Of a stretch of DNA of 37,329 nt, positions 12,147 to 34,386 are shown one piece after another. This stretch comes from a virus, in the IMG/VR virus record IMGVR_UViG_3300045988_163332, positions 1-37,329 of that record, one strand, 5' to 3'. The notes under the pieces are model-generated. The model ran no database searches and was not told where the DNA came from. It saw nothing but the letters and a program-made list of their open reading frames with translations. The translations under genes and the position numbers were made by a program. Positions within the stretch are counted from its first letter, which is position 1, and every line of letters begins with the position of its first letter.

Positions 12147-14230
12147 TATTCCTCCTTAATAAACTCTTCTACATCAAATACTGCATATCCATTATCAGTA
12201 AATACAGGTTGCCCACCATAGAAAAGTCTTACCTTTGTGCTCCCTATATCTTGTACAAAAGTTATATTTTTCTTATCTCCTATTTCTTTAATAGTTCCAT
12301 TGTAATTAACTTTATATGTATTTTTAGCTATCATTTCATTTATAGCTTTTTGAGTTTTTTCTATATCTCTTTCTTTACCAACAAAACCTCTATCTATTTG
12401 ACCTGTTATAAAGTTAGTTCTCTCCTCTTCTTTTATTATTTTAGGTGCAAATATAACTCTATTATTCCCTAGATTAATAGTATCTAGTCCCTCTGTCATA
12501 GCATTAACTACATTTTCTACCCTGGAATTTACAGTTTCTCTTATTGATTTATCATTTTCTAAAACTCCTTTAAGGAAAGTTCTTTGTTGCTCTGGGGTTA
12601 AACTAGCTATAGGTTGACCTACATATTTTTCTTTTAGTCCTCCTTTATCAGCTAAATCATCTGTTATTACACCACCATATTTAGAATACAATTCTAGTAT
12701 TAGTGTGTCAGTTGCTATTTGAGTTATATCTTTAGTTGCTCTTGTAGCTGCTAAACTTCCATTATTTGCTGCAGCTTGTAGTCCTGCTATTTTACCACCT
12801 GCAGCTATTGAAGTTGTTTTTTTAGGAGCAGCATAGTAAGGAGTATTATTATCAAATTCATAATAAAATTCTGTGTTAAATTCCTTTAGTTCTGAAAAAT
12901 CAGTTATTTGAACTTTATCAAAATTAGCAAGTATTTTTCTATTATCAGAACTATATACTTTGTCAAATTCATCTTTAAAGGTAGTATTCATCTGGTATGT
13001 TTCCATAAGCATACTTCCACCTATTATATTCTCATCTGTGGTATCATAGAAGTTTTTTACTGCTTCATATCCATAACCATTAGCCATCAATTCAGCTTCT
13101 TGTTGCCTAAAATTCATTATCCCTTCCCCAGCTAAATTAGGATTTTTATATACTTCTGTGGTGTCATTTAAACCTTTTTCTTTCCAAGGAATACTATATC
13201 CTAAATTTATAGCTTCATTTACTCCTGTTACAGTTACCCCATTTTTATAGTTTATAGCTTTTACCATTGTACTCTCTGGTATATATCCATCTGCTGCTAC
13301 TTGGTCTTCTTTTAAAGATAATTCCAAAGGATTTGTTTTTTTCTTTTGTTCATATTTTAATCTCTCAACCATAGTATTTTGCTTATTTAATTTTTCTTTA
13401 TTATTTATTCTTGTAAGTCCACTTGTTATAGTAGATTGAAATTTGTTATAGTCATCTACTGTCAAATAAAATTCTCCTGTATCATTTTTAAAGTTGAGAT
13501 CTGAAAACTTTTCCATAAATTGAGAAGTATTCCAAGTAGACATATTTTCAAGAACTGATTTACCATTTGGTTGATTTACAAAAGATGACACATAACTTAC
13601 TATAATATCTTGTCTTTGCTTGCTAGCAAGTTCAATAGCTTTTGTCCCATCTATATATCCTGCTTCTATTGCTCTATCTAAATCTTGAGCTACATTGTAA
13701 AAACCTTGTACTGCTCCTTGATAATCTCCAAGCATAGCAACTGATGAAAGATTATCTCCTTTCATTCTTATAATTCTGTTAGCTTCATCTTTTTGAATTT
13801 TCTCATTATAGTCATTGTATTCAACTAAATAATTTACATTTGATTTTTCAAGTTCTCCTGTTACCATAGAACTATATTTTTCTAATATAGAACCATCTAT
13901 CCCTAATTCCTTTCCATCTTTTTTAAATTGCTCTATATTAGCTTTTATTTCACTCTCTAAAGAGTTATAAGAATCAAAATTATGGAATAATTTTTTATTT
14001 ATTTTTCCCTGGTTATCTCTATCTAATATCATTTTAGACATAGAGGCAGCAAATTGCTGCCCGAATGTTTCTGCTTGTATTAAGTCTTGCTTTTGTTTTT
14101 TCTGGAAAAGTTCCTCAAGTTTACTAGCTACATTTCTCTCTACTCCAAAATCTGCAGCTATATTTAATTGTGGTACTGCTCTACCACTTGGTCTATTTAT
14201 TTTTAAAGGTTGTATTAGTGTTCCTGCCAT
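12146..14230 (-). CDS. Internal virion protein (694 aa), gp15-like by position.
   Basis: Start and stop codons overlap those of the neighbouring genes. No enzymatic motif recognised. Confidence 0.5.
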   Translation of the reverse strand: MAGTLIQPLKINRPSGRAVPQLNIAADFGVERNVASKLEELFQKKQKQDLIQAETFGQQFAASMSKMILDRDNQGKINKKLFHNFDSYNSLESEIKANIEQFKKDGKELGIDGSILEKYSSMVTGELEKSNVNYLVEYNDYNEKIQKDEANRIIRMKGDNLSSVAMLGDYQGAVQGFYNVAQDLDRAIEAGYIDGTKAIELASKQRQDIIVSYVSSFVNQPNGKSVLENMSTWNTSQFMEKFSDLNFKNDTGEFYLTVDDYNKFQSTITSGLTRINNKEKLNKQNTMVERLKYEQKKKTNPLELSLKEDQVAADGYIPESTMVKAINYKNGVTVTGVNEAINLGYSIPWKEKGLNDTTEVYKNPNLAGEGIMNFRQQEAELMANGYGYEAVKNFYDTTDENIIGGSMLMETYQMNTTFKDEFDKVYSSDNRKILANFDKVQITDFSELKEFNTEFYYEFDNNTPYYAAPKKTTSIAAGGKIAGLQAAANNGSLAATRATKDITQIATDTLILELYSKYGGVITDDLADKGGLKEKYVGQPIASLTPEQQRTFLKGVLENDKSIRETVNSRVENVVNAMTEGLDTINLGNNRVIFAPKIIKEEERTNFITGQIDRGFVGKERDIEKTQKAINEMIAKNTYKVNYNGTIKEIGDKKNITFVQDIGSTKVRLFYGGQPVFTDNGYAVFDVEEFIKEE

Positions 14231-14781: not shown

Positions 14782-16578
14782 TTATCCTATTTCTGCAAAT
14801 ATTCCTACTATTTCAATTTTCTCATTATTGAGTTGCTCTATAACTAATTCCTCTTTTCCAATGTTGGCCATGTCTATGTAGTGAATTTTTTCATAAAAAT
14901 TATCTGTGTTTTCTCCAAAGCCTACTGATTTAGTTTGATTATTTATTTTTAAGTTATAATTTCCATAACACAAAATCTTACAATTTTTAAATCTTGCTTT
15001 CATTAAAAATTCTGGAATTGGCATTTGGTAGTTTTGTGACATAGTTGTTTTTGGTAGTTTTAACTTTAAAGGCTCTACTTCTGTTTCTGAATAAGTATAT
15101 ATATCTATATTTTCATTATTAACATTGAAGATATAGAGTTTATCATCTATATTAAGATATTCATTTATTCCAGGCAATTTAGGTACTCTAGTCCAACATA
15201 ATATATTTTCTGAATAATTATAGCTTAATGCTCTTCCACCACTTACTGTATCTACTCCTATAATGTTGTTTTTACCAATTTTATGAAAGTAAATATCATT
15301 GATGTTATCCATTAAGTGTCCAGAATATAGTGTTACTTCCTGCACTACATAAGCACTATCTGCCCCTACGTCTTGTATTTGATAGATTCTATTTGAGCTA
15401 TCAACATAGTATATTGCGTCGTCTGCCTCTGTCCAATACCCAAGCCCTTTAGGTCTTGGTAGTTTTTGGTCGTACAGTGCTGATGTTTCAGTAGTTAGTC
15501 CCTCATTTAATTGTGTGGAATAAATTCCTCTATCTGTTATTACTATCAAGGATTTATAAGCTATAAACTCTTTAACAGTATTAACTTCATTACCAGTAAC
15601 AAAGGTAGTAAATCCATCATTATCATCTGTTGATTGTCTAAAGTTAGTAGAGTCATATACCCTACTTGACACTATCGCTGATGGGTTACCTGCAACATTC
15701 CCAAATATAACTCTTCCTTTATACTCTGCCACTACTGCTGGATAACCACCATTGAATAAAGATTCAGAGAAAGTTATATCCAGGATATTTATTTTTCTTT
15801 CAGCTTCTGGAGTTGATGAGGTAGGAATATCTATTCCAGTTGCTGGTGCTGTAACTTGTGTAGTAGTTATCTTTTGTTTTCCATCTCTATTCTCTATTTT
15901 ATTGATTCTAAATTCTCCAGCCATATAGGAAATAGTTCCCTCTTTTAATTTGTCCAGGAATGTAGGTTTAAATACAGGACTTGAGATAGTAGATTCAAAG
16001 ACAACACTTGCTCCAGATTGATACCATTGAAATACTTGTTTTTCTTCATCTGTATATTGATATTGAGTTTCCACTCTTTTTACTGGAGGATTTACTATAT
16101 TTTCCCAATACTCTACTACATCAAACTCTTGAGTATCTTCCGTAACTCTTATCATTTCTGGTTTTTTATTAGCTACACAAGTTATAACACTATTTTGGAA
16201 TTGTGCTATACTTAGATTCTCAATCTCTTCATCTGTGTAATTTACTTCTATTTCCTTTATAACTTCAAAGTTATCTTCTCTTAATATAATTACTTTTAAT
16301 TCAGTAAATAAAAAAAGATACCCACTAAGCGAGGTATCTTTCTTTTGAATTTTATATTTAAAAATCTTGAAAGCATTTATAATAGTTTTGGTTGTAACTG
16401 CTAGAATAGTAGCAACTTTTTTTAATGCTGGGAAATTAGTTATTCCTGCTGAAGAGGTTATAAGTCCATTTTCTAAATAGGCTAATCCTCTGTTTGGTAT
16501 ATCTGTATCTACCCTAAAACATAGTGGTGGGTCTATCTCCCCTAAAGAGAACCTCCCCTTTTTTTCATAATATTTCAT
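14782..16578 (-). CDS. Virion structural protein (598 aa), in the position of a tail tubular protein B.
   Basis: Long ORF following the 167-aa gene. Assignment rests on synteny only. Confidence 0.4.
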   Translation of the reverse strand: MKYYEKKGRFSLGEIDPPLCFRVDTDIPNRGLAYLENGLITSSAGITNFPALKKVATILAVTTKTIINAFKIFKYKIQKKDTSLSGYLFLFTELKVIILREDNFEVIKEIEVNYTDEEIENLSIAQFQNSVITCVANKKPEMIRVTEDTQEFDVVEYWENIVNPPVKRVETQYQYTDEEKQVFQWYQSGASVVFESTISSPVFKPTFLDKLKEGTISYMAGEFRINKIENRDGKQKITTTQVTAPATGIDIPTSSTPEAERKINILDITFSESLFNGGYPAVVAEYKGRVIFGNVAGNPSAIVSSRVYDSTNFRQSTDDNDGFTTFVTGNEVNTVKEFIAYKSLIVITDRGIYSTQLNEGLTTETSALYDQKLPRPKGLGYWTEADDAIYYVDSSNRIYQIQDVGADSAYVVQEVTLYSGHLMDNINDIYFHKIGKNNIIGVDTVSGGRALSYNYSENILCWTRVPKLPGINEYLNIDDKLYIFNVNNENIDIYTYSETEVEPLKLKLPKTTMSQNYQMPIPEFLMKARFKNCKILCYGNYNLKINNQTKSVGFGENTDNFYEKIHYIDMANIGKEELVIEQLNNEKIEIVGIFAEIG

Positions 16579-16587
16579 TGTTGCCTC

Positions 16588-17091
16588 CTATCTTAAATCC
16601 TCTATATTAATTATTGGAGGATTGTCATGTATAAATTTATTTTGCTCTGCTAAGAAAAGTTCATATAATCTACTTAATTCTCCAGCTTTAGAAAGTGGAG
16701 CTGCCATCATAATTGCAAGTGAAATACTAGCAAGTCTTGTATATTTCTCATCTATTTCTTCTGGGTCTATATTTTTCAAATATTTAAATAAAAAATTATT
16801 TTTTGAACTGATTAATTTATCCCTATAAGCCTCCACACCACTTGTTAATGATTTAATATACCCATCTGGTTTTAAGTAAATTATCTTCCCAAGCATATTT
16901 TGTACATCAGCTTTTCTTAGTACCACTTCATCTATATTAATTCCATAATTTTCATTTTGTAACATATCATTTATCATCATCATATAATAGTTATCTCCAA
17001 CCTTATAAGCTGATGATGTTTCCTGGTCTGCCTCATCATAAGGAAAGCCAAGTTCTAACATAGCTGCTCTAATTACTTTGTGTTTTTCCAA
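16588..17091 (-). CDS. Virion structural protein (167 aa), in the position of a tail tubular protein A.
   Basis: ORF with an RBS. Assignment rests on synteny only. Confidence 0.4.
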   Translation of the reverse strand: MEKHKVIRAAMLELGFPYDEADQETSSAYKVGDNYYMMMINDMLQNENYGINIDEVVLRKADVQNMLGKIIYLKPDGYIKSLTSGVEAYRDKLISSKNNFLFKYLKNIDPEEIDEKYTRLASISLAIMMAAPLSKAGELSRLYELFLAEQNKFIHDNPPIINIEDLR

Positions 17092-17266
17092 TTATCCTGT
17101 TACCTCCTTCTATAAATTTTTTCATTACTTTTAGTTGCTCTGGAGTATTTGCTAATTCAACTCCAATTTTTCCTACAACTAAAAAGAAAGTTCTTGCTTT
17201 GATATATTTGTTTTTTAATAAAAATCTCATAAATTTAAAAAATATTATAAATAATTTACCTTTCAT
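17069..17266 (-). CDS. Small hypothetical protein (65 aa) that overlaps the recombinase stop.
   Basis: Good RBS: ggagg, 8-nt spacer, then ATG. Its start overlaps the recombinase stop codon. Confidence 0.35.
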   Translation of the reverse strand: MKGKLFIIFFKFMRFLLKNKYIKARTFFLVVGKIGVELANTPEQLKVMKKFIEGGNRIIGKTQSN

Positions 17267-17954
17267 TTTCCTGTGCCTCCTCTAGTATAATATTTTTCTT
17301 ATACTTGTAATATGTATTCTTAGTTATCCCTAGCAGTGTAAAGACTTCTATATCTTTAAGATTTCCTCCAAAATCTTTAGCTAGTTTTTTAATTTTCTCT
17401 CTCATCTCCTTTTCTTTCTTGGTAGTATAAGTATCTCCTTGTTTTCTACCTAATATAGTTCCTTTAGCTTTAGTAACTCTTAGTCCCTCTTTTGTCCTTT
17501 CTCTAAGGTCTAATACTTCCTTTTCAGCTTGGTCAAATGCTATTTTAATTTGTTCTTGAGCTAATATCTTCAATACTTCATTGGTTGCGTCTATGTATAT
17601 ATCAGCTATTTTATTTCCTGTTGAATCTATTTTATTCTCTAAAGCTTTTTTATAAAGGGCTGTATTGATATATCCCTCTTTTAAAAATATAAGTTCAATA
17701 CCTCTTTCTACAAAATTAAAATATTCTTTTATTCCCTCTTCTGCATTTCTACTCATTCTACTAACAGAATCAAATATAATTGTATCTCCAGGTTTAACTA
17801 TTTTTTTTAGCTTACTCCATTCTTTTCTATCTGTTGTAGTTCCTGTATATGCTTCTTGAAATACTTTAGCAGTTGGATATATCTTTATGATATTTTCCAC
17901 CTGTCTTAAAATATTTTGTTTTTTTGTAGATACTCTGCAATAACCGTATATCAT
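17256..17954 (-). CDS. Small serine recombinase (resolvase or invertase family) with a C-terminal HTH.
   Basis: The N-terminal block YGYCRVSTKKQ contains the catalytic Ser motif of serine recombinases. 232 aa, with a C-terminal helix-turn-helix (LLGITKNTYYKY). Confidence 0.8.
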   Translation of the reverse strand: MIYGYCRVSTKKQNILRQVENIIKIYPTAKVFQEAYTGTTTDRKEWSKLKKIVKPGDTIIFDSVSRMSRNAEEGIKEYFNFVERGIELIFLKEGYINTALYKKALENKIDSTGNKIADIYIDATNEVLKILAQEQIKIAFDQAEKEVLDLRERTKEGLRVTKAKGTILGRKQGDTYTTKKEKEMREKIKKLAKDFGGNLKDIEVFTLLGITKNTYYKYKKNIILEEAQENER

Positions 17955-18008
17955 CTTTTATCTCTCCTTTTAGTATTTATTCTGTCGTTCGTTTCACTTA
18001 ATACCATA

Positions 18009-18037
18009 ATTATACTATTTTTAGAGATAAAAAACAA
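18009..18037 (-). promoter_or_regulatory. Candidate promoter for the recombinase gene: TTGTTT, 17-nt spacer, TATAAT on the minus strand.
   Basis: -10 is the reverse complement of attata at 18009..18014. -35 is the reverse complement of aaacaa at 18032..18037. Confidence 0.4.
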
Positions 18038-18056
18038 TGTACTTTTAATACTTTTT

Positions 18057-18311
18057 TTAATAGGTTTGTTTTGATACTTTTTTGTGTTTTCTACTTTTTA
18101 TATTAGTAGTTAAAACTATAAGTAAAAATTGTTTAGGTACAAAGTCACAATCTTTGTATTTTTTACACCTACAATATCTAACTTTACTTATAACACTTAC
18201 TATTTTTTTACCTCTCGGTAAAACTTTATATTTTACTTTGCTATGGTGCTTAGGTTTTTTCTTTTTGTTCCAGGTTTTCATTTGTTGCCTCCACAAAGAT
18301 AACACATTCAT
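18057..18311 (-). CDS. Very basic Lys-rich small protein (84 aa). Uncertain.
   Basis: ORF with a CRCKKYKDCD cysteine cluster. It overlaps gene 18250..18540 by 62 nt, so the start is unsure. Confidence 0.3.
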   Translation of the reverse strand: MNVLSLWRQQMKTWNKKKKPKHHSKVKYKVLPRGKKIVSVISKVRYCRCKKYKDCDFVPKQFLLIVLTTNIKSRKHKKVSKQTY

Positions 18312-18540
18312 TATCTTTTCTTTTGTAGTTGTAACATTCTGGAATGAATCCAGCCGTTTCTAAAGCAGTGCAATTAATTTTAAGGTTTCTAAATATACAG
18401 TCTAAGCAGCTCCCTCCAGCTGACTTTAATACTAATATTTTTTTGTTTCCAAAAGTAAATTCTTTTCCAATTTCAAGATTTTTAAACTCTTCATCTGTTA
18501 TATTATCTACTGTTTTTCCTATTCTGCTGCACTTATCCAT
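18250..18540 (-). CDS. Small Cys-rich protein (96 aa), a possible zinc-binding protein.
   Basis: Cysteine-containing blocks GGSCLDCIF, NCT and IPECYNYKRKDNECV. Confidence 0.4.
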   Translation of the reverse strand: MDKCSRIGKTVDNITDEEFKNLEIGKEFTFGNKKILVLKSAGGSCLDCIFRNLKINCTALETAGFIPECYNYKRKDNECVIFVEATNENLEQKEKT

Positions 18541-18713
18541 ACTTTTCTCTCACCTATATCAAAATTTGGGTTATGAGTTCTGTCTTCAATATGTAGTTTA
18601 ACAATTCCATTTCCAGTATATCCGAAGATTTCTACCTCGAAATCTTCAATATTATGCTTTTCTCCATATTCTTTTATCTCTTTTATTCTCTCTTCTAGCT
18701 CTTTTAATGTCAT
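18519..18713 (-). CDS. Small hypothetical protein (64 aa).
   Basis: ORF packed within the accessory island. Confidence 0.4.
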   Translation of the reverse strand: MTLKELEERIKEIKEYGEKHNIEDFEVEIFGYTGNGIVKLHIEDRTHNPNFDIGERKVWISAAE

Positions 18714-18922
18714 TTCTTATCTTCTCCCATTCTATAAATTCTTACCTTTGTTTCTTCTTTTAGTGTTGGTGTAGTCAAACCATCATAATATCTTCTTCTT
18801 TTTTCTAAGTTTTTAGCTATCAACTCATCACACATTTTAGAAATTTTTTTAATTCTTTCTATTTCTTGTATTTTTTCTAAAACAATAGGTGCAACTCCCC
18901 AAGGACATCGCTTTCTTTCCAT
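18710..18922 (-). CDS. Small hypothetical protein (70 aa).
   Basis: ORF with overlapping start and stop codons. Confidence 0.4.
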   Translation of the reverse strand: MERKRCPWGVAPIVLEKIQEIERIKKISKMCDELIAKNLEKRRRYYDGLTTPTLKEETKVRIYRMGEDKK

Positions 18923-18940
18923 TTATCCCCCTTTTATACC

Positions 18941-19171
18941 TCAAGGTATAATTTTAACTCTTGAGTATTTATCTGCTTCTTTCCAAAATCTTTGTAATTT
19001 TCTTTTTTGCAATATAGAACTTATAGTTCTACCTAATTTTAAACTAATATCTTTTAAATCATTTCTATAATCTAGTGCATACTCTAAGTCTTTACTTGTC
19101 CAAGGTTTGTTATGATTAAAATGATATTTAGGGTTGTAATTGATTAAATCTTTATTTTTTACCTTTTCCAA
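18941..19171 (-). CDS. Small hypothetical protein (76 aa).
   Basis: ORF in the accessory island. Confidence 0.4.
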   Translation of the reverse strand: MEKVKNKDLINYNPKYHFNHNKPWTSKDLEYALDYRNDLKDISLKLGRTISSILQKRKLQRFWKEADKYSRVKIIP

Positions 19172-19247
19172 CTCTACCCCCTTATCTTTTGTAATACATC
19201 AATTACTATTACTGCTGCTGCTAACATTAATATAATCTTAGGTCTTG

Positions 19248-19937
19248 TCATTTCAACTCCTTGTTTTTGACTTTTATTCTTTTTATATTCCTATCCATTT
19301 TCCTTTTATACTCTTCTTCTAACTCTTCATCATCAAAGTTGTAAATTTCTTTTAAAAGTTGGAGGCAGATATAAACGTCTGCCATCTCTTCTTTTATCTC
19401 TTCTCTCCTATCAAAACCCCTTAAATCCTTACAAATTTCTTTTTGCAACTCTGATAATTCCTCTACTGCTATCATTTTGTTGACGTCAACACTTTGGTTT
19501 TCTAATAAGAGTTTTATATCTGGATTTTTTATTAAAATATTTTTATTTAATTTTTTGTTTTCTAATTCTATTTCTTTTTTGGTAGCAAATCCAATATGAG
19601 AACTTTTTTTATTTTTCCATAAAAAATTAAATTTTTGTAATTTGAAAAATGTTTCTTCTTTTTCAATAAACCATTTATCAAAAATTAAAGTATATCTTCC
19701 AATTCTTATAACAGTTTGTTGAAAATATGGTATATCATCAATTGAAAAATTTTCTGTATAATGTTCAAGAAGATATTTAAAAGCTTTTTCATTTTTTAAT
19801 ACAAAATCCATGTGATTTATTTTTGTTTCTTTCTCAAAATCTTTTCTTATTTCCTCTTCCATTTCCTCTTTAGTTTTTTTACTATCTATAGACAAATCCA
19901 ATATTGAACCTGGAATAATATTAAAGCCTCTAAGCAT
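19248..19937 (-). CDS. Protein with a C-terminal MazG-like nucleoside-triphosphate pyrophosphohydrolase domain.
   Basis: The C-terminal block EELSELQKEICKDLRGFDRREEIKEEMADVYICLQLL matches the MazG pattern EE..E...divalent-cation site followed by E..D. The N-terminal 150 aa are unassigned. Confidence 0.55.
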   Translation of the reverse strand: MLRGFNIIPGSILDLSIDSKKTKEEMEEEIRKDFEKETKINHMDFVLKNEKAFKYLLEHYTENFSIDDIPYFQQTVIRIGRYTLIFDKWFIEKEETFFKLQKFNFLWKNKKSSHIGFATKKEIELENKKLNKNILIKNPDIKLLLENQSVDVNKMIAVEELSELQKEICKDLRGFDRREEIKEEMADVYICLQLLKEIYNFDDEELEEEYKRKMDRNIKRIKVKNKELK

Positions 19938-19948
19938 TTTTACCCCTC

Positions 19949-20458
19949 CTAGAAAGGAAACTCTCCATCATCTTCTATTATTTTTCCATATTTTTGACTG
20001 TATTTTCTCCAAGTAATTGGTTCTTCTATGGTGTCCTTTATCTCTTTAGCTGTTCTCTTACTCTTAATTTCCACAAACGATTGAACTCTTCTTTCTGTTC
20101 TTCCGTCTACATTATGTTTACACTCAACTATAATACCTATTCCTTTTCCCTCAAGTTCTTCTATAACAAACTTTTCTCCTCTAACCACTGGACTTAATTC
20201 TGGTTTATTCTTAGTTAAATACATAAGATGTGCTATGTGTCTTAAATTAAATGCTATATCTTTTCCATCTTTAGCCTTAAAGAAAAGGCTTAAAGGTAAT
20301 ATATCTTCATTTACCTTTACTGTAAGATTTAATGCTACTGCCTTGCTATCTCCTGCCTCAAATAACTCTGCTTTTGTTATAACTCCTGTATAACAACCAC
20401 TATCTTCAATTATTACGCTATCTGCCTGTTCGTTTAAGTATTTTTCATCTAATGTCAT
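19949..20458 (-). CDS. Hypothetical protein (169 aa).
   Basis: ORF whose RBS (aagaggtg) sits at the end of the upstream small ORF. Confidence 0.5.
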   Translation of the reverse strand: MTLDEKYLNEQADSVIIEDSGCYTGVITKAELFEAGDSKAVALNLTVKVNEDILPLSLFFKAKDGKDIAFNLRHIAHLMYLTKNKPELSPVVRGEKFVIEELEGKGIGIIVECKHNVDGRTERRVQSFVEIKSKRTAKEIKDTIEEPITWRKYSQKYGKIIEDDGEFPF

Positions 20459-20460
20459 AA

Positions 20461-20643
20461 TTACACCTCTTTATGTTCCCAAGTTATTATAAAAATCATT
20501 TCAAAATTATTTTCAAAAATTGTTATATCTCTTATTTTTCTGATAAAGCTTTCTCCAGAACTTGCTTTTACTATTTCAATATATAATTCCTCATCATCTG
20601 GCAACTTATTTTCATTCTCTAATTGTTTCTTATACATTTGCTT
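20461..20643 (-). CDS. Possible unannotated small ORF. The minimal ATG version gives a 60-aa product. The open frame runs up to about 20850 with no ATG, GTG or TTG start.
   Basis: Translation of the minus-strand gap 20461..20776 is open. A canonical ATG gives MYKKQLENENKLPDDEELYIEIVKASSGESFIRKIRDITIFENNFEMIFIITWEHKEV. Its stop lies 2 nt before the start of gene 19949..20458. Confidence 0.3.
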   Translation of the reverse strand, partial: KQMYKKQLENENKLPDDEELYIEIVKASSGESFIRKIRDITIFENNFEMIFIITWEHKEV

Positions 20644-20776
20644 TAATATAGCAAATCTCTCATCTTTCTCATCTACTTCTGAAAATTTCTCATATATTCT
20701 TACTGTATTATTTTTTATTCCACTCTTTTCTTTTATGTAAAAATGTGGGTCGCTTTTAAATTTTACTTTTACAATA

Positions 20777-21040
20777 TTACGCCTCCTGTTCCCATTTATC
20801 TTTTTGAAATTTTTTATTAAATATTTTAGGTGGATTTACAAACCACTCTACACTGTCAAAGCCTGTATAGATATAGTTGTTAGGTTCTACTTTCTCATAA
20901 TCTATCATTATACAGTCCTCAACTTTTCTAACTTGATGGTTTGATAATACCTCTGCTACTTCCTTATGGTTTTTACCATTAAAAAATACTGCTTTTACTC
21001 TGAAATTACTTTCAATATTTCTATATATCATTCCACTCAT
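20777..21040 (-). CDS. Small hypothetical protein (87 aa).
   Basis: ORF. ATGA overlap with the upstream gene. Confidence 0.45.
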   Translation of the reverse strand: MSGMIYRNIESNFRVKAVFFNGKNHKEVAEVLSNHQVRKVEDCIMIDYEKVEPNNYIYTGFDSVEWFVNPPKIFNKKFQKDKWEQEA

Positions 21041-21375
21041 TATTTCTTTTCTCCTTTTTTAGCTTTATCAAATGGTAACTGTTCTTTTTTTATAGCTTCC
21101 TCTATCTCTTCTGGACTTAGTCCTGCTTCAAATTTTTCAAGGAATTTATCATAATCTACATTTTTATATTTTCCTTGAGATTTTTCACTATCAAAATATA
21201 CTTGTAATGCTTGTTTCTTAGATAGTTTTATAGATATTTCTAAATCTCCATCTTTGTATTTTAAGATAACATTAGCATTACTTACTTGATGTCCAGAAGG
21301 AACTAACTTAGTTGTAGGTTTATATTTTTTTCTAAATGATGTATCTACAACCTCCATAACTTTAATATCTACCAT
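21040..21375 (-). CDS. Small Lys-rich hypothetical protein (111 aa).
   Basis: ORF. Confidence 0.45.
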   Translation of the reverse strand: MVDIKVMEVVDTSFRKKYKPTTKLVPSGHQVSNANVILKYKDGDLEISIKLSKKQALQVYFDSEKSQGKYKNVDYDKFLEKFEAGLSPEEIEEAIKKEQLPFDKAKKGEKK

Positions 21376-21659
21376 TCTTCATCAACTCCTTTTAAAGCTC
21401 TTCTAGCTTTTTCTGTTTTATTTTTCTTTATCTTTTTTAATAAGTTTTCAATACTAATTTCTTTCCAGCCCTCTGCTCCTCTTTCTAGTATTTTTATAGG
21501 ATTTTTAGCTTTAGGTTTCATTCTAAAAAAATATCTAGCTGCCTCATACATAGTTATGAACGATTCCTTAAATTCCATTCTTTTATACTCTTCTCCATTT
21601 ATAACTACTATTTCTTTGATTGATTCTACTATGTAGTTATAGCTTTCTAAATTTATCAT
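21369..21659 (-). CDS. Small hypothetical protein (96 aa).
   Basis: ORF. Confidence 0.45.
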   Translation of the reverse strand: MINLESYNYIVESIKEIVVINGEEYKRMEFKESFITMYEAARYFFRMKPKAKNPIKILERGAEGWKEISIENLLKKIKKNKTEKARRALKGVDEEW

Positions 21660-21768
21660 TGTTACCCCCTTTTTGCTTATAATCTAATTAAAACATTCAA
21701 GTCTTTAAATGCTTTAACTAGAGCATAAGCTCTAGCTTTGTGTGTGTTGTAAGTTATTTTAAGAAAGG

Positions 21769-21984
21769 TTATGAGTTTTCGCCCTCTTGCCAATCTTCCG
21801 CTAAGCAATCATTGACACTTGGTACCCATGTACTTTTAGTTCCGTTTACATTTTTTATAATAAAGTGAGAATTTAATTCTTCTGTTGCTGGAATTAAGCA
21901 TACATACATTCCTTTTCCATTCCAACCTTTACGTGATACTATTCCACCGTGTTTTAAAAGTTCTAAAGCTTCTCCAAAATTCAT
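21769..21984 (-). CDS. Small protein (71 aa) resembling the DUF2829 family. This is the fold of Tad2 Thoeris anti-defence sponges.
   Basis: The N-terminal pattern MNFGEALELLKHGGIVSRKGWNGKGMYV matches the remembered DUF2829 signature F.EAl..lk.Gk.v.R.gWng. Recalled from memory, not searched. Confidence 0.4.
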   Translation of the reverse strand: MNFGEALELLKHGGIVSRKGWNGKGMYVCLIPATEELNSHFIIKNVNGTKSTWVPSVNDCLAEDWQEGENS

Positions 21985-21996
21985 ATTTATTCCTCC

Positions 21997-22464
21997 TTAT
22001 TTTCTGGTACAATCTTCTACCGCTTGGTCGTAGTCTCCTGATGTTGAGCATGATGTATCTTCTGTTTTTTCTATCTTTTCCATCTTTGACTTAAACTTAT
22101 CAATACCTATTCTTTCTAGCAATACAGAATAATATCTAATCATAAGGTCTCTTTGAATAGCTAGTAATTGTCTTTGATATTCATCTGTATATTTTTTCTC
22201 TTCCATTTCTTTTGATAAGAAAGTTGAAAGCTTATCTATTTTAATCTCTAGTTCTTGTGCTTCCTCTTCCATTCTTTCTATATGATTTTTTGGTCTTGTC
22301 TCTATACAACTAGGTTCTAGTATTTCCATAGCCCCAAGCTCTTCAATCTCTTTTTTTAATTCTTGCCAAGCAACAAGACCACTTAAATATCCAGCTTCAC
22401 ATTCAAATCCTACCCCCTCTATATCTTGGATAAGTTTTTTCATTTTTTCATATTTACCACTCAT
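21997..22464 (-). CDS. Acidic, coiled-coil-rich hypothetical protein (155 aa).
   Basis: ORF with RBS aggagg, 9-nt spacer, then ATG. Confidence 0.45.
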   Translation of the reverse strand: MSGKYEKMKKLIQDIEGVGFECEAGYLSGLVAWQELKKEIEELGAMEILEPSCIETRPKNHIERMEEEAQELEIKIDKLSTFLSKEMEEKKYTDEYQRQLLAIQRDLMIRYYSVLLERIGIDKFKSKMEKIEKTEDTSCSTSGDYDQAVEDCTRK

Positions 22465-22490
22465 TCCTACTACCTCCTACCAGTTCCTAC

Positions 22491-22610
22491 CTATTTATCT
22501 ATCCATTCTTTTTTTATCCAAGTAGGAACTTCTTTACCTTTTTTATATCCTAAAAAATATCCTATTACTCCAGCTACCACCAATGATATTATTAATGTTA
22601 TTACTGCCAC
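22491..22610 (-). CDS. Candidate small hydrophobic peptide (39 aa, GTG start).
   Basis: Translation gives (M)AVITLIISLVVAGVIGYFLGYKKGKEVPTWIKKEWIDK. It fits a single transmembrane segment. Below the ORF-track size cutoff. Confidence 0.3.
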   Translation of the reverse strand: MAVITLIISLVVAGVIGYFLGYKKGKEVPTWIKKEWIDK

Positions 22611-22613
22611 TTT

Positions 22614-22718
22614 TTATCCTTTTATCTTATAATCTCTTTTACATTTTCTATATCCCCATACAAAACCACCAGCTACTGCAATGGCTGCTCCAAATAATTC
22701 AATTATTAATCTTGACAT
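22614..22718 (-). CDS. Candidate small hydrophobic peptide (34 aa).
   Basis: Translation gives MSRLIIELFGAAIAVAGGFVWGYRKCKRDYKIKG. Strong RBS aaggagga placed 5 nt upstream of the ATG. Confidence 0.35.
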   Translation of the reverse strand: MSRLIIELFGAAIAVAGGFVWGYRKCKRDYKIKG

Positions 22719-22804
22719 ATTATCTCCTCCTTATAAAAAATAGAGGGAAAATGCAGTATCCCTCTATTCAGTTGTAATGGTTAAATTAAATTGTTGCTTC
22801 CTGT

Positions 22805-24067
22805 CTATTCTGATTTTTTAGCTGCTTTTGTAGTTGTAGTAGTTGTTGCTGGTGCTTCTTGTGTTTCAGTAACTGCTGCTTGTTTGTTAGCTGCTCTTAA
22901 TCTTTCTAGTTCTAACTCTTTTTCTACTCTCTCCATTCTCATTTTTTCAATCTCTTTTTCTTGCTCTAGTTGTTCATTATTTGCTAATGACATTACTGAC
23001 ATTTTTTCTGTTTCTATTGAAGCTGCTGCTGCTCCTGTTGTTCTTTTATATTCAAAAATGAATACTCCCTCTGGATTTAATAATTCTGTTGAGTTATATA
23101 CTTCAACATCTAATAAATATGCTTTTTTATCAGCTATATAGTTAGCTTCTGGTGTTACTGATACATCTTTATTATCTTGACCGAAACTTCTTTCGACCAT
23201 AACTAGAAAATATCCTACCTCTTCTGAACCTAAAGGATATAAAGTTTTGTCAAATTGGAATAATCTTTCTACATGTCCACCCATCAACATAGATAATGGT
23301 TGTCCTGTTTTTCTTGTTTCCCCTTCTCCAAAATCTTTACTTGAGAATCTTTCAGCATTTGCAAGTTCTGTATTACCTTCAATTCCAGAAACTATCGCTA
23401 TTCTTAAACCTTGATTTGACGCCGCCTCTTGTGCTTGTAACATCATTTTTCTAAATAATTTTATATTTTCTGGAGTGTCAAATTCTTTTGTTTTATCTCC
23501 AAAAAATTGACTATCTGGTATCACTAAATCAAAAGTTTTATTGTCGCTACCTGTAACTGTTCTTTTTTTATTAGTTATACAATCTTTGAAAAGTTCAGCT
23601 ACTCTTATAGCACATCTTCCATATGTTGCTGCCACTTGAGCGTCTATTATTGTTGATTTTTCATCTAGTTGAGAACGGTTAAAATCTCTTCTCTTAACAT
23701 ATACAGGGCATTCCATTCCTGTTGGTATAACTTTAATACTTCTTAAAAAAGTTCCTGTATCTTGTCCTTTTACTTCTGCTGGTGTATAGTTAGGTCCTGA
23801 TATAGCTTGTTTGTCATCTATATCCCTAGATTCTAATCTTCCAGATACATAGAATAAAGAGTAAGCTTCATTTGTTGAAGCTGATTTTTCAAACCAACCT
23901 TCAAGTGGCATTTTCTTAGTTGTGTTTAAGGCTCTCTTTACACTATTAGCGTATTTAGCTTGTTCTCCTGCTGAAAGGTTTACGTTTCCGTATTCATATC
24001 CACCTTCTCCAGCAAATAACTGGATATTTAATCCTGTGCTTCCTAATAAAGTTTTTTCATTTCTCAA
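22805..24067 (-). CDS. Major capsid protein with an N-terminal L27-like Prp cleavage motif.
   Basis: 420 aa. TTG start after RBS aaggagga. N-terminus MRNEKTLLGSTGLNIQLFAGEGG. Follows the portal and scaffold genes. The C-terminus has a coiled-coil region and an ATTTTTT tail. Confidence 0.6.
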   Translation of the reverse strand: MRNEKTLLGSTGLNIQLFAGEGGYEYGNVNLSAGEQAKYANSVKRALNTTKKMPLEGWFEKSASTNEAYSLFYVSGRLESRDIDDKQAISGPNYTPAEVKGQDTGTFLRSIKVIPTGMECPVYVKRRDFNRSQLDEKSTIIDAQVAATYGRCAIRVAELFKDCITNKKRTVTGSDNKTFDLVIPDSQFFGDKTKEFDTPENIKLFRKMMLQAQEAASNQGLRIAIVSGIEGNTELANAERFSSKDFGEGETRKTGQPLSMLMGGHVERLFQFDKTLYPLGSEEVGYFLVMVERSFGQDNKDVSVTPEANYIADKKAYLLDVEVYNSTELLNPEGVFIFEYKRTTGAAAASIETEKMSVMSLANNEQLEQEKEIEKMRMERVEKELELERLRAANKQAAVTETQEAPATTTTTTKAAKKSE

Positions 24068-24085: not shown

Positions 24086-24748
24086 TTATTTTATAAAATC
24101 CCAATAAAATGGGTCATCTTGCTTTTTAGCTTGTGCATATTCTCTTAATTTATTCATTAAACCTTTATCATTTGTATCTAAAGCTTGATTATAAGCCTCA
24201 ATGAATCCATCATGTGTATAATCTGTTGAAAGCTGTGTTTTTCCAACTCCTACTACACTTCCTGTACTTCCTGCTTTCATTTCCATGTATTCCTTTAGGA
24301 TTTGAGCTCCTATTGCATTTTCTGCCATAGCTCTATATACTATCTGTCTATCTGTGTCTTTCTCTGCTCCTATGAAGTTATTTATTGCTTCCATACTTGC
24401 ATTAAGTTCTGGAGTGAAAGCTGCTTTTTGTTCTGCTAGATAAGCTTTTCTATCATCTAGTCTTGATTTAATGTACTCTGGAGTGTAACCTTTTTCTTGA
24501 GCCTCTGTGATATATGGTGCTATATCTCCAATCTCTTGGTAATCTTCTGCCTTTATTCCTTCCCAAGTTAATGGCTCTACTTTAGGTTCTGCCCCTGCCC
24601 TATTATCTCCACTTGGTTGTGGTGGTTCTCCTCCAGATCCTGTATTTATTGTTGGCTCTGGATTTGGTGTAGGTTCTCCTCCTGTATCTCCTCCCTCTGT
24701 TCCTCCAAATAATTGGATATTAAATTTAAATCTTTCTTTATCAGTCAT
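24086..24748 (-). CDS. Scaffolding-like head protein with an N-terminal Prp-type motif.
   Basis: 220 aa and acidic. N-terminus MTDKERFKFNIQLFGGTEGG. Lies between the portal and capsid genes. Confidence 0.5.
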   Translation of the reverse strand: MTDKERFKFNIQLFGGTEGGDTGGEPTPNPEPTINTGSGGEPPQPSGDNRAGAEPKVEPLTWEGIKAEDYQEIGDIAPYITEAQEKGYTPEYIKSRLDDRKAYLAEQKAAFTPELNASMEAINNFIGAEKDTDRQIVYRAMAENAIGAQILKEYMEMKAGSTGSVVGVGKTQLSTDYTHDGFIEAYNQALDTNDKGLMNKLREYAQAKKQDDPFYWDFIK

Positions 24749-24962
24749 TTTCTTCTTTTACCTCCTTCGTAAATATCTCCATGTATAAACTGTTTACTCC
24801 AGTTATTTCCTTCACTTTCCCTACTGTATCAACTCCTTTGTCGTTCATGATAGAAACTCTATTGAGTTCGAGCATTAAGTATAGTTCGATTAGTCTTTTT
24901 AAAGCTCTATCATCTCTATATCTTCTTTTTAACTCTTCGTACTCTTTTCTCTCTTCTGTCAT
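24741..24962 (-). CDS. Small hypothetical protein (73 aa).
   Basis: ORF with overlapping stop and start codons. Confidence 0.4.
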   Translation of the reverse strand: MTEERKEYEELKRRYRDDRALKRLIELYLMLELNRVSIMNDKGVDTVGKVKEITGVNSLYMEIFTKEVKEEND

Positions 24963-26467
24963 TGTTCTATCATTCCCCCTTGTTGTGCAGCTATCATAGC
25001 GTTCATTTCCTCAACTTGTTTTTCTGTTTCCTCTCCAGATTTCCACTCTTTATTATTGATTCTAAATCTTTTTTGTTGAGCGTCTATATATTCAGCTTGG
25101 TTCATATTAGCTGCTGCAACCTGTGGTCCTAGAGTGCTTGCTATATTTTGGAAATACAACATATTTCTTTCAAGGTCATCTTGGTCTTGTGCTATTGTTA
25201 GTGCATTGTAGAATCTTATCTTTAATCTTGGATTTTCCTGTAAAGCTTTAATTTTAGATATATCTATAATGCTAATCTTTTGTAGACATTGGAAAACTTT
25301 TATAACTATCTCTCTTAAAAGTTCCCTTTGCATTAGAGCATAGGTTGGCTCTATTTGCTTAGCGAACTCTGTTGTTACTAGTTGTGTTGTTGTAGCAGTA
25401 ACATTCTTTAGCTGGTCTAAGTTTTGAGCCGTTTCAAATATATTGATATAGAATATATCTCTCAAAAGTTCCTTGTACATGTCTAGGTTAAAGAACTCCA
25501 TATTAGCATTTTCTCCCCTGTTGAATGGTATTATCTGATTTTGTACTGGCGACATTCCCATCATAGATATAGCTCCTGGTTCATCTATTCTTGAGTTCTG
25601 AATATATTTAGCCTCTCCATACCCCAGATAACTTGGTCTAGCTTGTTTCTTAGCAATACGTCTGATGTTGGCTTTAACTTCTTTTAGTCCTTCAATTTCC
25701 ATTATTGCTTTAACACAAGGTCCTATACCATATGGACTATCTCCAATACTTTCATATCTTGCAACTATCCACGGATTGTAAGTGTCTATCCTATAATCTA
25801 AAACGTCTGCAAACTCATTTGAAGTAGATACTACATAGTGAAACATTTTAGTTTCTTGGTCGTATATTGTACCTTCCCACAACTCTATCTCATCATCTTG
25901 TGACATTCTTTGAACCTTTTCAGAGTTATAAGCATTTTCTCCGAAAAGATTAAGAATCTGATGTTTTCTCACTTTACCTGCATTGTAGAATGTATCTCCA
26001 GGTTGTTTACCTCTTCTTTTAGTAAGATAAACATTTATATTGGGTACTGGTTGAAATTCCACAGGATTTGCAATTTTACCAGTAAATCTAACTTTGAATA
26101 CTGCTGTTCCTATTAGATAGTCCATAAGAATTACAGCTTTCTCTGTTTCAAAGTTAGAATTTTCTTGAATCTCATCAAATACTATTTCTGTTATGCGTCT
26201 AAAGATAATCTTGTCATCTCTTGATATATCTTCAAACCTTGGTGTTTCTATCCAAGCCCAGATATGATTACTATTAAGTATCATAGCTGACAACTTGTTA
26301 GCTAACTTAGTAGCATATGCTAGTCCTGTACTGTCTACACCATTTAAATTAATTTCTCTTGGTAGAAAATGTGCTCTAGCTTTCAAATACCAAGCTAGTA
26401 TTACATTTCTTTCCTGTTGTGCCTCCTGGAATCTACTACGAAATAGATTTTTAATTCTATCTTCCAC
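24959..26467 (-). CDS. Portal protein (502 aa), assigned by size and position.
   Basis: Long ORF immediately upstream of the scaffold and capsid genes. No family-level motif verified. Confidence 0.5.
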   Translation of the reverse strand: MEDRIKNLFRSRFQEAQQERNVILAWYLKARAHFLPREINLNGVDSTGLAYATKLANKLSAMILNSNHIWAWIETPRFEDISRDDKIIFRRITEIVFDEIQENSNFETEKAVILMDYLIGTAVFKVRFTGKIANPVEFQPVPNINVYLTKRRGKQPGDTFYNAGKVRKHQILNLFGENAYNSEKVQRMSQDDEIELWEGTIYDQETKMFHYVVSTSNEFADVLDYRIDTYNPWIVARYESIGDSPYGIGPCVKAIMEIEGLKEVKANIRRIAKKQARPSYLGYGEAKYIQNSRIDEPGAISMMGMSPVQNQIIPFNRGENANMEFFNLDMYKELLRDIFYINIFETAQNLDQLKNVTATTTQLVTTEFAKQIEPTYALMQRELLREIVIKVFQCLQKISIIDISKIKALQENPRLKIRFYNALTIAQDQDDLERNMLYFQNIASTLGPQVAAANMNQAEYIDAQQKRFRINNKEWKSGEETEKQVEEMNAMIAAQQGGMIEQ

Positions 26468-29184: not shown

Positions 29185-29221
29185 TTCCTGCACCTCCTTT
29201 CGTTTTCTTGGTGTTAAAATG

Positions 29222-29422
29222 TTATTTGCTATTTAATACCTTTTCTATTTTCACTAAAATTTCATTGCTTGGGACTTGGTTATTTCTTAATCTCAACATA
29301 ATATTTGCAAATGAAGCTTTAGGAATCCCAGCAAGTTCTGCAAATTCTGCCTGTGTTATTTTTTTTCTTTTTTTAAATTTTTCAATTTCATTTATAATCA
29401 AATCAGTTATTTTTTTAATCAC
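29222..29422 (-). CDS. XRE-family helix-turn-helix regulator (Cro-like, 66 aa).
   Basis: HTH block ITQAEFAELAGIPKASFANI. GTG start. Confidence 0.6.
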   Translation of the reverse strand: MIKKITDLIINEIEKFKKRKKITQAEFAELAGIPKASFANIMLRLRNNQVPSNEILVKIEKVLNSK

Positions 29423-29446
29423 AATATAACCCCCTTTTAGTTATAT

Positions 29447-29475
29447 TATATATCCTTTTTAGTTATTTTTGTCAA
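29447..29475 (-). promoter_or_regulatory. Promoter for the Cro-like gene: TTGACA, 17-nt spacer, TATATA (minus strand).
   Basis: -35 is the reverse complement of tgtcaa at 29470..29475. -10 is the reverse complement of tatata at 29447..29452. Confidence 0.5.
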
Positions 29476-29539
29476 GCATTAAAATTTTATATTGGTTATG
29501 TGAGTTATAAAAAAGCTATAATATAAAGGATTTTGAGCA

Positions 29540-29568
29540 ATAAAAAAGAGGAGAAAATTTTCTCCTCT
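29540..29568 (-). terminator. Hairpin terminator after the CI and secreted-protein operon.
   Basis: Stem agaggag / ctcctct with loop aaaatttt. A U-run follows on the minus-strand RNA. Confidence 0.55.
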
Positions 29569-29621
29569 TAGTATATTTTTTTATTTTTGGTTTTTGGCTA
29601 ATAATTCTTATAAAAATATTT

Positions 29622-30173: not shown

Positions 30174-30181
30174 AAATCCCC

Positions 30182-30832: not shown

Positions 30833-30862
30833 ACTTTTTCAACTCCTTTTATAACTAATTTG

Positions 30863-33883: not shown

Positions 33884-33889
33884 AATAAA

Positions 33890-34375: not shown

Positions 34376-34386
34376 GTAGTTTTAAT

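Follow-up and report, generated by a model that had tools for sequence, protein, structure and literature searches.

The stretch of DNA analyzed here, called the window throughout, comprises positions 1 to 37,329 of the virus record IMGVR_UViG_3300045988_163332 from IMG/VR (37,329 nucleotides), and our subject is the block of small genes that separates its putative major capsid gene from its gene for a tail tubular protein A-like protein (tube A). About 18 open reading frames (ORFs) occupy the interval from 22718 down to 17069, in good agreement with the approximately 16 small genes noticed between the capsid and tail modules in a first-pass annotation made from the sequence alone, and all coding in the block and its flanks is on the minus strand. 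In order from the capsid side the ORFs encode proteins of 34, 39, 155, 71, 96, 111, 87, 58, 169 and 229 amino acids (aa), a hidden peptide of 25 aa, proteins of 76, 70, 64, 96 and approximately 74 to 84 aa, a recombinase of 232 aa and a protein of 65 aa. The coordinates are collected in Table 1. T7-like gene orders had been said to have nothing between the capsid and tube genes. In phage T7, gene 11 comes straight after gene 10. In the Methylophilales phage MEP301, which is the best annotated relative by its portal protein, one 88-aa ORF separates the capsid gene from that of tube A.

Table 1 Features of the window in and around the accessory block, with strand and basis of assignment.
Feature	Coordinates	Strand	Basis or remark
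Plus-strand block	30997-37225	+	Gp157 (PF05565), Sak single-strand annealing protein (PF06378), Rep_3, ParA, possible ParB
Rep_3 initiator gene	34387-35544	+	
CI-type helix-turn-helix/S24 repressor	30182-30832	-	faces the plus-strand Gp157-to-ParB block
Portal	24959-26467	-	PF12236, 5.5e-29
Putative scaffold	24086-24748	-	assigned by position; no family match
Putative major capsid protein, 420 aa, upstream flank	22805-24067	-	position after portal and putative scaffold
Intrinsic-terminator-like hairpin	22730-22769	-	11-bp stem AUAGAGGGAUA/UUUCCCUCUAU, then U-run, directly after capsid gene
34-aa hydrophobic mini-protein	22614-22718	-	kept in most haplotypes (cluster c9)
39-aa hydrophobic mini-protein	22491-22610	-	cluster c20; in the window, L001 and L005; absent from L002 and L003
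37-bp translation-initiation (ribosome-binding) linker, 5' cassette junction	22460-22496	-	GTAGGAAYTRGTAGGAGGTAGTAGGAATG; ends in start codon
155-aa Sequestin-family protein	21997-22464	-	PF21825, 1e-13
71-aa loop-less Tad2-family protein	21769-21984	-	PF11195, 2.2e-23
Long imperfect hairpin, 3' slot edge after Tad2 gene	21675-21730	-	dG -27.6 kcal/mol, z -5.07, 0/200 shuffles
96-aa protein	21369-21659	-	conserved trio
111-aa protein	21040-21375	-	conserved trio
87-aa protein	20777-21040	-	conserved trio
58-aa ORF (sub-slot B)	20461-20637	-	C-terminal remnant of 104-114-aa gene
169-aa OB-fold protein, like single-strand DNA-binding proteins	19949-20458	-	phrog_743 'single strand DNA binding protein', 2.5e-8
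229-aa protein	19248-19937	-	variable N-terminal half (sub-slot C) and NTP pyrophosphohydrolase domain, residues ~121-227
Hidden 25-aa hydrophobic mini-ORF	19174-19251	-	MTRPKIILMLAAAVIVIDVLQKIRG; ATG overlaps stop of MazG-like gene (ATGA)
76-aa protein	18941-19171	-	phrog_11013; nearly all related loci
70-aa protein	18710-18922	-	nearly all related loci
Sub-slot D	18250-18713	-	64-aa ORF (18519-18713) and Cys-rich 96-aa ORF (18250-18540)
Very basic ORF, ~74 aa	18057-18281	-	cluster c6 in 9/9 haplotypes compared
232-aa small serine recombinase (resolvase/invertase type)	17256-17954	-	PF00239, 2.4e-20, 73.6 bits
65-aa ORF	17069-17266	-	overlaps recombinase end and tube A start; present in relatives
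Tube A, downstream flank	16588-17091	-	phrog_394 tail protein, 4e-5
Tube B	14782-16578	-	phrog_376, 1.7e-28

The 71-aa protein had been compared, by the look of its N-terminus, with the DUF2829 family to which the Thoeris antagonist Tad2 belongs, and this identification is confirmed at the level of sequence, residues and fold. Residues 1-66 match positions 1-71 of the 73 in the Tad2-like profile PF11195 with 83 bits, where the gathering score is 25, and FGEALELLKHGGIVSRKGWNGKG is the start of this domain. A phmmer search of the PDB returned Tad2 chains (8v3e and 9eib at 2e-16, HgmTad2/AcrIIA7 at 1.5e-12 and SPO1 Tad2 at 1.1e-11). When an AlphaFold2 monomer model with a mean predicted local distance difference test score (pLDDT) of 92.4 was compared with the PDB by Foldseek, ranks 1-24 were all Tad2 structures with template modeling (TM) scores between 0.82 and 0.92; the model superimposes on Myroides odoratus Tad2 (8v3e) with a TM score of 0.92 and a root-mean-square deviation of 1.5 Å, with up to 49% identity over the aligned region, and on SPO1 Tad2 (gp34.65) with a TM score of 0.89, sharing the fold of helix α1 and an antiparallel β-sheet. 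SPO1 Tad2 contacts the immune signal glycocyclic ADP-ribose (gcADPR) through W25, N26, W73 and D79, as well as S76, I63 and other residues (Yirmiya et al.). In the HMMER alignment these six correspond to W21, N22, W53, D59, S56 and I43 of the 71-aa protein, within the retained motifs GWNG and WVPS..D..AEDW, and among 36 homologues I43 is nearly invariant and the other five are invariant.

With 71 aa against 88-104 aa in the known members, the protein is short for a Tad2. It lacks the β2-β3 loop bearing helix α2, a deletion common to just 2 of 35 aligned homologues. In SPO1 Tad2 the missing segment makes the V-shaped dimer interface (Yirmiya et al.). Tad2 is a homotetramer composed of such dimers, which pack through α2 and β2. 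In ModTad2 an extended region after β2 that includes α2 builds an additional pocket, and cyclic dinucleotides are reported to bind at this position in other homologues, among them HgmTad2. Since the segment for this second pocket is absent, we predict that the protein is a Tad2 with the canonical cyclic ADP-ribose (cADPR)-type pocket only.

Next to the Tad2 gene lies the gene for the 155-aa protein, a second sponge candidate that had escaped the first-pass annotation. Its residues 60-119 match positions 2-59 of the 61 in PF21825 with 51.4 bits (cutoff 24.8), and 19 of its 19 homologues are PF21825 proteins. The family is named "crAss001_48" in the Pfam copy used and "Sequestin" in precomputed labels on related contigs. 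PF21825 is the Sequestin sponge family, most often found fused to Tad2 (60 cases) and Acb4 (91 cases); type I Thoeris was inhibited by 10 of the 13 members assayed, and a purified member sequesters 3' cyclic ADP-ribose (3'cADPR) (PMC12265669). Sequestin is described as an antiparallel homodimer with two 3'cADPR pockets. The predicted pocket residues are R8, E12, Q47 and R61 in SequestinA and R7, E11, Q45 and R59 in SequestinB, and mutants in the E, Q and R positions were inactive (PMC12265669). Among 14 relatives of the 155-aa protein there is no variation at E68, Q104 or R118 and hardly any at R64, and by their spacing these residues would correspond to the published ones (R-x3-E ... Q-x13-R). 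The spacing is 4/36/14 compared to 4/34/14 in SequestinB, and the difference equals the two extra residues implied by the hmmscan coordinates, in which 60 residues are placed on 58 columns of the profile. By analogy with the PF21825 description, it is expected to be α-helical.

The 155-aa protein differs from the described Sequestins (T4 Y16Q, SequestinA and SequestinB; PMC12265669), which are approximately 60-80 aa long, by its size and by two additions, at the N-terminus a conserved extension of 58 aa (GFECEAGYL..W.ELKKEI) and at the C-terminus a tail containing Cys. The protein is also separate from Tad2, with a stop codon, a ribosome-binding site and an ATG between the two genes; that fusions of PF21825 with Tad2 belong to the commonest ones fits well with the adjacency of the two genes in the window.

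For comparison of the locus, related loci were taken from IMG/VR (L001-L003) and from ENA, Logan and JGI assemblies that encode identical proteins (L004-L011, L015-L019 and L023-L032), and the slot counts given here cover 23 distinct related metagenomic loci. The flanks of the block are collinear among them with 92-99% identity, all loci have the same orientation, and within 13.8-27 kb of the window the homology is interrupted by four non-homologous segments, A (21771-22619), B (20482-20773), C (19554-19935) and D (18284-18709), the sole other replaced segment being a capsid-gene swap in haplotype L007. It is clear that slot A always holds a sponge-family gene (23 of 23 loci), but not always the same one: the pair of Sequestin-155 and Tad2-71 is found in 7 loci, Sequestin alone (130-140 aa) in another 7, and a 149-aa protein of the Acb4 family in 9. 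The latter allele, which had also been missed and is absent from the window itself, matches PF13876 with residues 71-143 (53 bits). PF13876 is the family of Acb4, the anti-CBASS sponge of SPO1, which binds cyclic dinucleotides of the cyclic oligonucleotide-based anti-phage signaling system (CBASS) (PMC11722364). Compared to Acb4, the 149-aa allele has an extra N-terminal module of approximately 65 aa that is unannotated.

The slot A alleles are freely reshuffled in combination with those of slots B-D and with two capsid alleles. The position is fixed, the flanks are conserved, close relatives differ in cargo and many haplotype combinations occur, all as in a hotspot. Variable cargo in place of conserved structural genes is found in all four sub-slots, and the profile searches returned known anti-defense families for two adjacent genes of the window (PF11195 and PF21825), so that neither of the two outcomes named beforehand as refuting the idea was obtained. 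The earlier suggestion of a hotspot for anti-defense genes is therefore supported for slot A, the only slot whose genes demonstrably belong to anti-defense families. Most of the other genes are kept in most or all relatives; established counter-defense families (PF11195, PF21825 and PF13876) are cargo of slot A only. The same cassettes are found outside the lineage. Locus L012 (ERZ27258011 k141_5338) is an unrelated phage with a primase-helicase, a sigma factor, a dUTPase, SpoVG and Band_7, and at 7249-8396 it carries an Acb4-like 149-aa gene (89% identity) directly before a 131-aa Sequestin gene, showing that the sponge cassettes circulate between phage lineages.

In the Sequestin-only alleles the homology to the window ends at approximately 22065-22100, which indicates that the Cys tail is inherited jointly with the Tad2 gene. 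The tail of the 155-aa protein, ...TEDTSCSTSGDYDQAVEDCTRK (window 21997-22065), recurs as the C-terminus ...THCSTASSYDEAVEDCFK of a loop-less Tad2 homologue in another phage context, and a tail of this type looks frameshifted in two further homologues (the entries compared were P0021, P0008, P0022 and P0023). Possible roles of the tail are that of a docking peptide or that of a linker left over from a fusion protein that was split.

The edges of the slot A cassettes fall at short conserved elements. At the 5' junction the 37-bp linker is common to the Sequestin gene (in the window and L007) and to the Acb4-like gene (in L002 and the unrelated L012) with 92-94% identity. The 3' edge is a stop codon followed by a conserved intergenic linker with the long hairpin, and the homology between the window and the loci with the Acb4 allele resumes at 21770. 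This hairpin is present in all haplotypes with three one-sided substitutions that, judged by eye, are apparently compatible with pairing, and it may serve as an RNA-processing or stabilizing site at the cassette boundary. At the capsid end of the block, the hairpin with a U-run (RNA fold -14.9 kcal/mol, z -4.35, equalled by 1 of 200 shuffles) follows right after the capsid stop codon, so that the block begins behind a terminator-like element, which by its structure may work as a terminator. In T7 the T-phi terminator likewise comes after gene 10. An Rfam scan of 16500-23200 gave no match.

Collectively, we interpret the locus as an accessory block of mosaic composition, located in the late strand with the structural genes, whose slot A holds interchangeable genes for sponges directed against immune signaling, and we assign this reading a probability of approximately 0.78. 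By analogy with characterized members, the Sequestin-family and Tad2-family proteins would each form a small homo-oligomer, in which pockets between the subunits would bind and sequester the ADP-ribose-derived signals made by TIR proteins (3'cADPR/gcADPR, possibly histidine-ADP-ribose). A Thoeris-type effector would then stay off and the infected cell would not abort the infection, while the Acb4-family allele of the sister genomes would soak up CBASS cyclic dinucleotides. Recombination at short homologies is the probable way in which cassettes are exchanged, namely at the 37-bp linker on the 5' side and the hairpin linker on the 3' side, and the Sak and Gp157 recombination genes of the element itself may help in this exchange.

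Several points weigh against this interpretation. Tested members of the Tad2 family vary widely in ligand, acting on type I, II and IV Thoeris, CBASS and Pycsar, and the target can therefore not be read from family membership; ligands and Thoeris or CBASS targets are here proposed by analogy. The loop-less form of the 71-aa protein could, judged from its sequence, assemble into oligomers different from those of SPO1 Tad2. The mapping of the Sequestin pocket residues was made from their spacing and the hmmscan coordinates and not from a direct alignment with SequestinA or SequestinB. Counter-defense would be expected to act early, whereas the sponge genes are in the late strand. Finally, the larger part of the block lacks an anti-defense annotation and is shared by most or all relatives.

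The last point leads to the remaining genes, among which two besides those of slot A look like genes for DNA or nucleotide metabolism. The AlphaFold2 model of the 169-aa protein (pLDDT 92) has its best PDB fold match in the OB-fold protein PrgE of pCF10 (E 6e-6, TM 0.48/0.61), with weak matches to SsbA and canonical single-strand DNA-binding proteins (SSBs) (E ~0.03), and it has a conserved tip of SSB type, ...EDDGEFPF, where P168 and F169 are nearly invariant. In the 229-aa protein a C-terminal MazG motif had been recognized beforehand, and indeed the residues of EELSE...EEMAD (E159, E160, S162, E163, E183, E184 and D187) do not vary among 16 homologues, the most distant of which has 29% identity, and neither do the basic residues K213, R216 and R220. 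Residues 121-227 match the NTP pyrophosphohydrolase (NTP-PPase) family phrog_2245 (1e-16) and one source labels a homologue "NTP-PPase-like protein", while the Pfam MazG-like profile PF12643 gives 17.5 bits, below the cutoff of 27. PDB sequence searches gave no match for the 155-, 229- and 169-aa proteins. Atd1 is a phage MazG-like enzyme that is reported to blunt abortive infection driven by TIR proteins by degrading (p)ppGpp (bioRxiv 10.1101/2022.06.09.495361). The 229-aa protein resembles Atd1 in having an all-α NTP-PPase domain with paired acidic motifs and in being encoded by a phage near counter-defense genes; the likeness is drawn from the published description, and together with the sub-cutoff Pfam score we take it as a lead and not as membership.

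The genes for the 96-, 111- and 87-aa proteins (20777-21659) are present in every related locus covering these positions, and this trio has no significant Pfam, PHROG-function or NCBIfam match. Likewise Pfam, PHROG and NCBIfam gave no informative match for the 76- and 70-aa proteins, the peptides of 34, 39 and 25 aa and the basic 74-aa ORF; for the ten block proteins searched, NCBIfam gave nothing useful, with one weak sub-threshold match each for the 169- and 229-aa proteins. The first-pass annotation had pointed out Cys-rich and basic mini-proteins, and both the Cys-rich and the very basic ORF exist; all peptide strings it quoted are also encoded where it had placed them. The basic ORF has an in-frame indel in L001. 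Longer N-terminal extensions are fused to the 70-aa module in L003 and L007. In slot B, L003 has the full-length 114-aa gene, and L001 and L002 lack the gene altogether. Slot D holds elsewhere a 185-aa dUTPase_2 (PF08761), or ORFs of 66, ~205 and ~220 aa, or one ORF of 192 aa, and Pfam and PHROG scans of the alternative cargo ORFs were mostly empty. Hydrophobic mini-ORFs of 34 and 39 aa open the block. The 118-bp block of the former is 92-93% identical in L002 and L003, and the latter is restricted to loci with a Sequestin allele, though not found in all of those; for the 25-aa mini-ORF, DNA conserved at 77% occurs at 10203-10310 of L012, the unrelated phage.

From these genes it could be argued that the block is mainly a module for DNA and nucleotide metabolism and regulation that happens to lie in the late strand, with small DNA binders and the resolvase as further components and the sponge genes as a small add-on. 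The OB fold and SSB-like tip of the 169-aa protein, the invariant NTP-PPase motifs of the 229-aa protein and the dUTPase_2 allele in slot D of some relatives are all in favor of this, as is the presence of most genes outside the four sub-slots in most or all related loci, the 96-, 111-, 87-, 76- and 70-aa genes being without anti-defense match. We consider this possible, although we would not expect it to prevail. It leaves unexplained why slot A carries a sponge gene in 23 of 23 loci and why three sponge families alternate there. Moreover, the SSB-like and MazG-like genes are not clearly "housekeeping" genes, since the MazG-like Atd1 is itself reported to counter TIR-driven abortive infection and an SSB gene adjoins a published anti-signaling hotspot (see below). 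It is also compatible with our explanation of slot A rather than opposed to it.

A second alternative concerns the 71-aa protein alone, which might be an anti-CRISPR of the AcrIIA7 type or a binder of cyclic di- or mononucleotides from CBASS or Pycsar. Relatives in the PDB were deposited as AcrIIA7 or "Inhibitor of Type II CRISPR-Cas system" (8kbi and 9kzr), and some Tad2 homologues do inhibit CBASS and Pycsar. However, the segment that forms the cyclic-dinucleotide pocket of Tad2 homologues is absent from the protein, the residues of its canonical gcADPR pocket are intact, and DUF2829 proteins have been argued to be anti-Thoeris and not anti-CRISPR proteins (Yirmiya et al.), which makes this alternative unlikely.

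The remaining alternatives depend on the nature of the element. Bases 1-89 of the window were found in a repeat search to be identical to bases 37241-37329, so that the window represents a circularly assembled complete element of approximately 37,240 bp; its overall G+C content is about 30%. Upstream of the Rep_3 gene there are four to five 22-bp iterons (34241-34350), with related copies at 34037-34123. Apart from the repressor gene, the minus strand is a morphogenesis and lysis operon in T7 order, running from portal, putative scaffold and putative capsid over tube A, tube B and three large unannotated proteins to TerL, and ending after TerL with two collagen-repeat fiber proteins, a weak peptidase_M15 match and a holin. 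The three large proteins stand where the internal-core proteins of T7 sit and are putative internal proteins. No integrase was found among the larger window ORFs scanned. We read this as a temperate podovirus-like phage-plasmid.

The two tail-fiber-like proteins (window 3036-5307, minus strand) contain long collagen Gly-X-Y repeats (PF01391), which raise the local G+C content up to approximately 41% and dominate the output of direct-repeat searches. The block is one of several mosaic regions of the element, although the most finely subdivided one. Others were seen at 9556-13781 (two large proteins), in the immunity region (29205-31439), at Gp157/Sak (32542-33882) and at the capsid gene (22803-23833), where alleles of 420-423 aa and 344 aa are swapped. 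The large proteins downstream of tube B vary in size, with 694 aa in one case compared to 665-708 aa and 1633 aa in the other compared to 1637-1842 aa.

The putative capsid protein has no match in Pfam, PHROG or the GenBank phages (the 344-aa allele of L007 carries a weak Phage_capsid_2 label, PF19821), the portal protein is at most 24% identical to those of Pelagibacter, Methylophilales and Vibrio podophages, and a DNA search of GenBank phages gave matches confined to DUF2829 stretches of 80-120 bp. Because none of these searches gave a close cultured relative, the comparison with cultured phages was limited to the gene order of MEP301. A search of 185,579 species genomes with capsid patterns found no relative and no host was therefore assigned, and PLSDB gave a single weak match, from Legionella. 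The evidence on the host is conflicting: the Rep_3 protein is closest to those of Cetobacterium (41% identity) and Fusobacterium varium (38%) plasmids, pointing to Fusobacteriaceae, whereas the holin is closest to those of Clostridium phages (43%). The lineage is nevertheless common in metagenomes. Clustering of tube A at 90% identity groups 55 members, with single variants on 80-90 metagenomic contigs, and near-identical phage-plasmids are present on several hundred metagenomic contigs, apparently from human-gut cohorts; GenBank holds the lineage solely as the "MAG TPA Caudoviricetes" proteins DAU80115 and DAU80134.

As the element is temperate and has a CI/S24 repressor, the genes of the block could be morons that the plasmid prophage expresses while resident and that serve the host through lysogenic conversion, not lytic infection, and the terminator-like hairpin in front of the block would make separate control possible. 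The promoter signal is, however, not above chance, with 34 promoter-like sites against 36 expected in the promoter scan. In addition, the block is densely packed and reads in the direction of the late genes, the tail genes follow without a detected break, and sponges that disable the host's own signaling defenses would be of benefit to the phage and not to the host. We regard this as quite unlikely.

The recombinase had been listed among the inserted genes as a serine recombinase with its own promoter. The protein is certainly of this type, but the gene lies just outside the originally delimited interval, which started at 17955, and the claim of a promoter is not accepted, since the sequence TTGTTT-17-TATAAT was read by eye and the scan just mentioned was not above chance. 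The protein matches phrog_125 (7e-37), and its PDB sequence matches are the gamma-delta, Tn3 and Sin resolvases (from 2e-10); the catalytic serine is in YCRVST, and the alignment with gamma-delta resolvase spans the YxRVST motif. With its PF00239 domain, serine motif and length of approximately 230 aa it resembles the small serine recombinases in general (gamma-delta/Tn3 resolvase, Sin and Gin/Hin), and by analogy a C-terminal helix-turn-helix is expected, where residues 159-222 have a weak match to a PHROG regulator. It differs from them in that a repeat architecture of the res, hix or gix type was not recognized upstream: only weak AT-rich repeats were found in 17800-18450, and no flanking inverted repeats, which does not exclude function. 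The gene is present in every related locus covering its position. In a context of plasmid replicon and partition system, and with no integrase found, dimer resolution is the most economical role, and we take the recombinase to be probably a plasmid dimer resolvase rather than cargo. That it should instead be the active agent at the locus, as an invertase, a cassette integrase or the integrase of the element, was rejected as the leading idea and is very improbable, because its best PHROG and NCBIfam names ("DNA invertase", the latter sub-threshold) and its position next to the variable slot D are outweighed by the lack of any convincing inverted or direct repeat pair around the block or slot D (weak AT-rich matches only), by cassette junctions at conserved start- and stop-codon linkers, which suggest homologous exchange, by the uniform orientation of the related loci, and by Rep_3, iterons and ParA together with circular assembly in many samples, which make integration unnecessary.

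Returning to the sponge genes of slot A, the concept itself is already published, both for hotspots and for Tad2, Sequestin and Acb4 as sponges, and what the locus adds is one more example, made up of genes from these families. Anti-defense hotspots with variable cargo are established, as for instance the anti-Gabija locus of SPbeta (Yirmiya et al.), and the gp59-61 "anti-signaling hotspot" of N4-like Migulavirinae has an Acb4-Sequestin fusion beside an SSB gene (bioRxiv 10.64898/2026.06.04.730250). The present locus shares with both the fixed position at which closely related phages carry different counter-defense genes, and with the latter also cargo of the Sequestin and Acb4 families and a nearby SSB gene. 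Unlike them it is located between the capsid and tail-tube genes in the T7-ordered late operon of a temperate phage-plasmid; the sponge genes are separate, in contrast to the Migulavirinae fusion, and sponges of Thoeris type and of CBASS type replace each other as alleles. What is particular here is the position between capsid and tube, the novel phage-plasmid lineage, the unfused pair of Sequestin and Tad2, the loop-less Tad2 and the clean allelic alternation.

It is tempting to extend the interpretation and let the slot mark a wider set of undiscovered counter-defense functions, but this we find rather doubtful. The N-terminal module of approximately 65 aa, MKKQFLTTKVVEVEEMSRKEYCQSRGWELPANEDGDERVFKVFYEDGYVSMCPKDKFLEQAYEI, makes up residues 1-66 of the 149-aa allele (L002 11799-11996) and is not found in the window. 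It occurs N-terminally fused in PHROG profiles of Tad2 (phrog_872), Sequestin (phrog_32732) and Acb4 (phrog_9467), and since this is the same pattern of fusion that revealed Sequestin, the module is a candidate for an additional sponge domain and could be a further sponge family. It has no Pfam match, and PDB sequence searches gave no match either for the module (68-aa query) or for the 149-aa protein. Lockin was considered as its identity and dropped, as both the described key residues and the N-terminal sequence mismatch. The always-linked trio of 96-, 111- and 87-aa proteins, a 102-aa ORF and the membrane mini-peptides could similarly be new inhibitors, and if late structural proteins trigger signaling defenses, the position behind the capsid gene could couple the dosage of sponge to these proteins.

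The locus provides a natural experiment, in which near-identical phage-plasmids differ mainly in the sponge of the slot, carrying a Thoeris-type pair, a single Thoeris-type sponge or a CBASS-type sponge. It also defines the cassette boundaries precisely and points to a few linked genes of unknown function as counter-defense candidates. With the 71-aa protein it offers a naturally minimal Tad2 without the second-pocket loop, which should help to tell the two binding functions of this family apart. At the level of the population it offers a view of sponge turnover, and the alternation of sponges among near-identical phage-plasmids points to a strong and shifting selection by signaling defenses in the uncultivated host.

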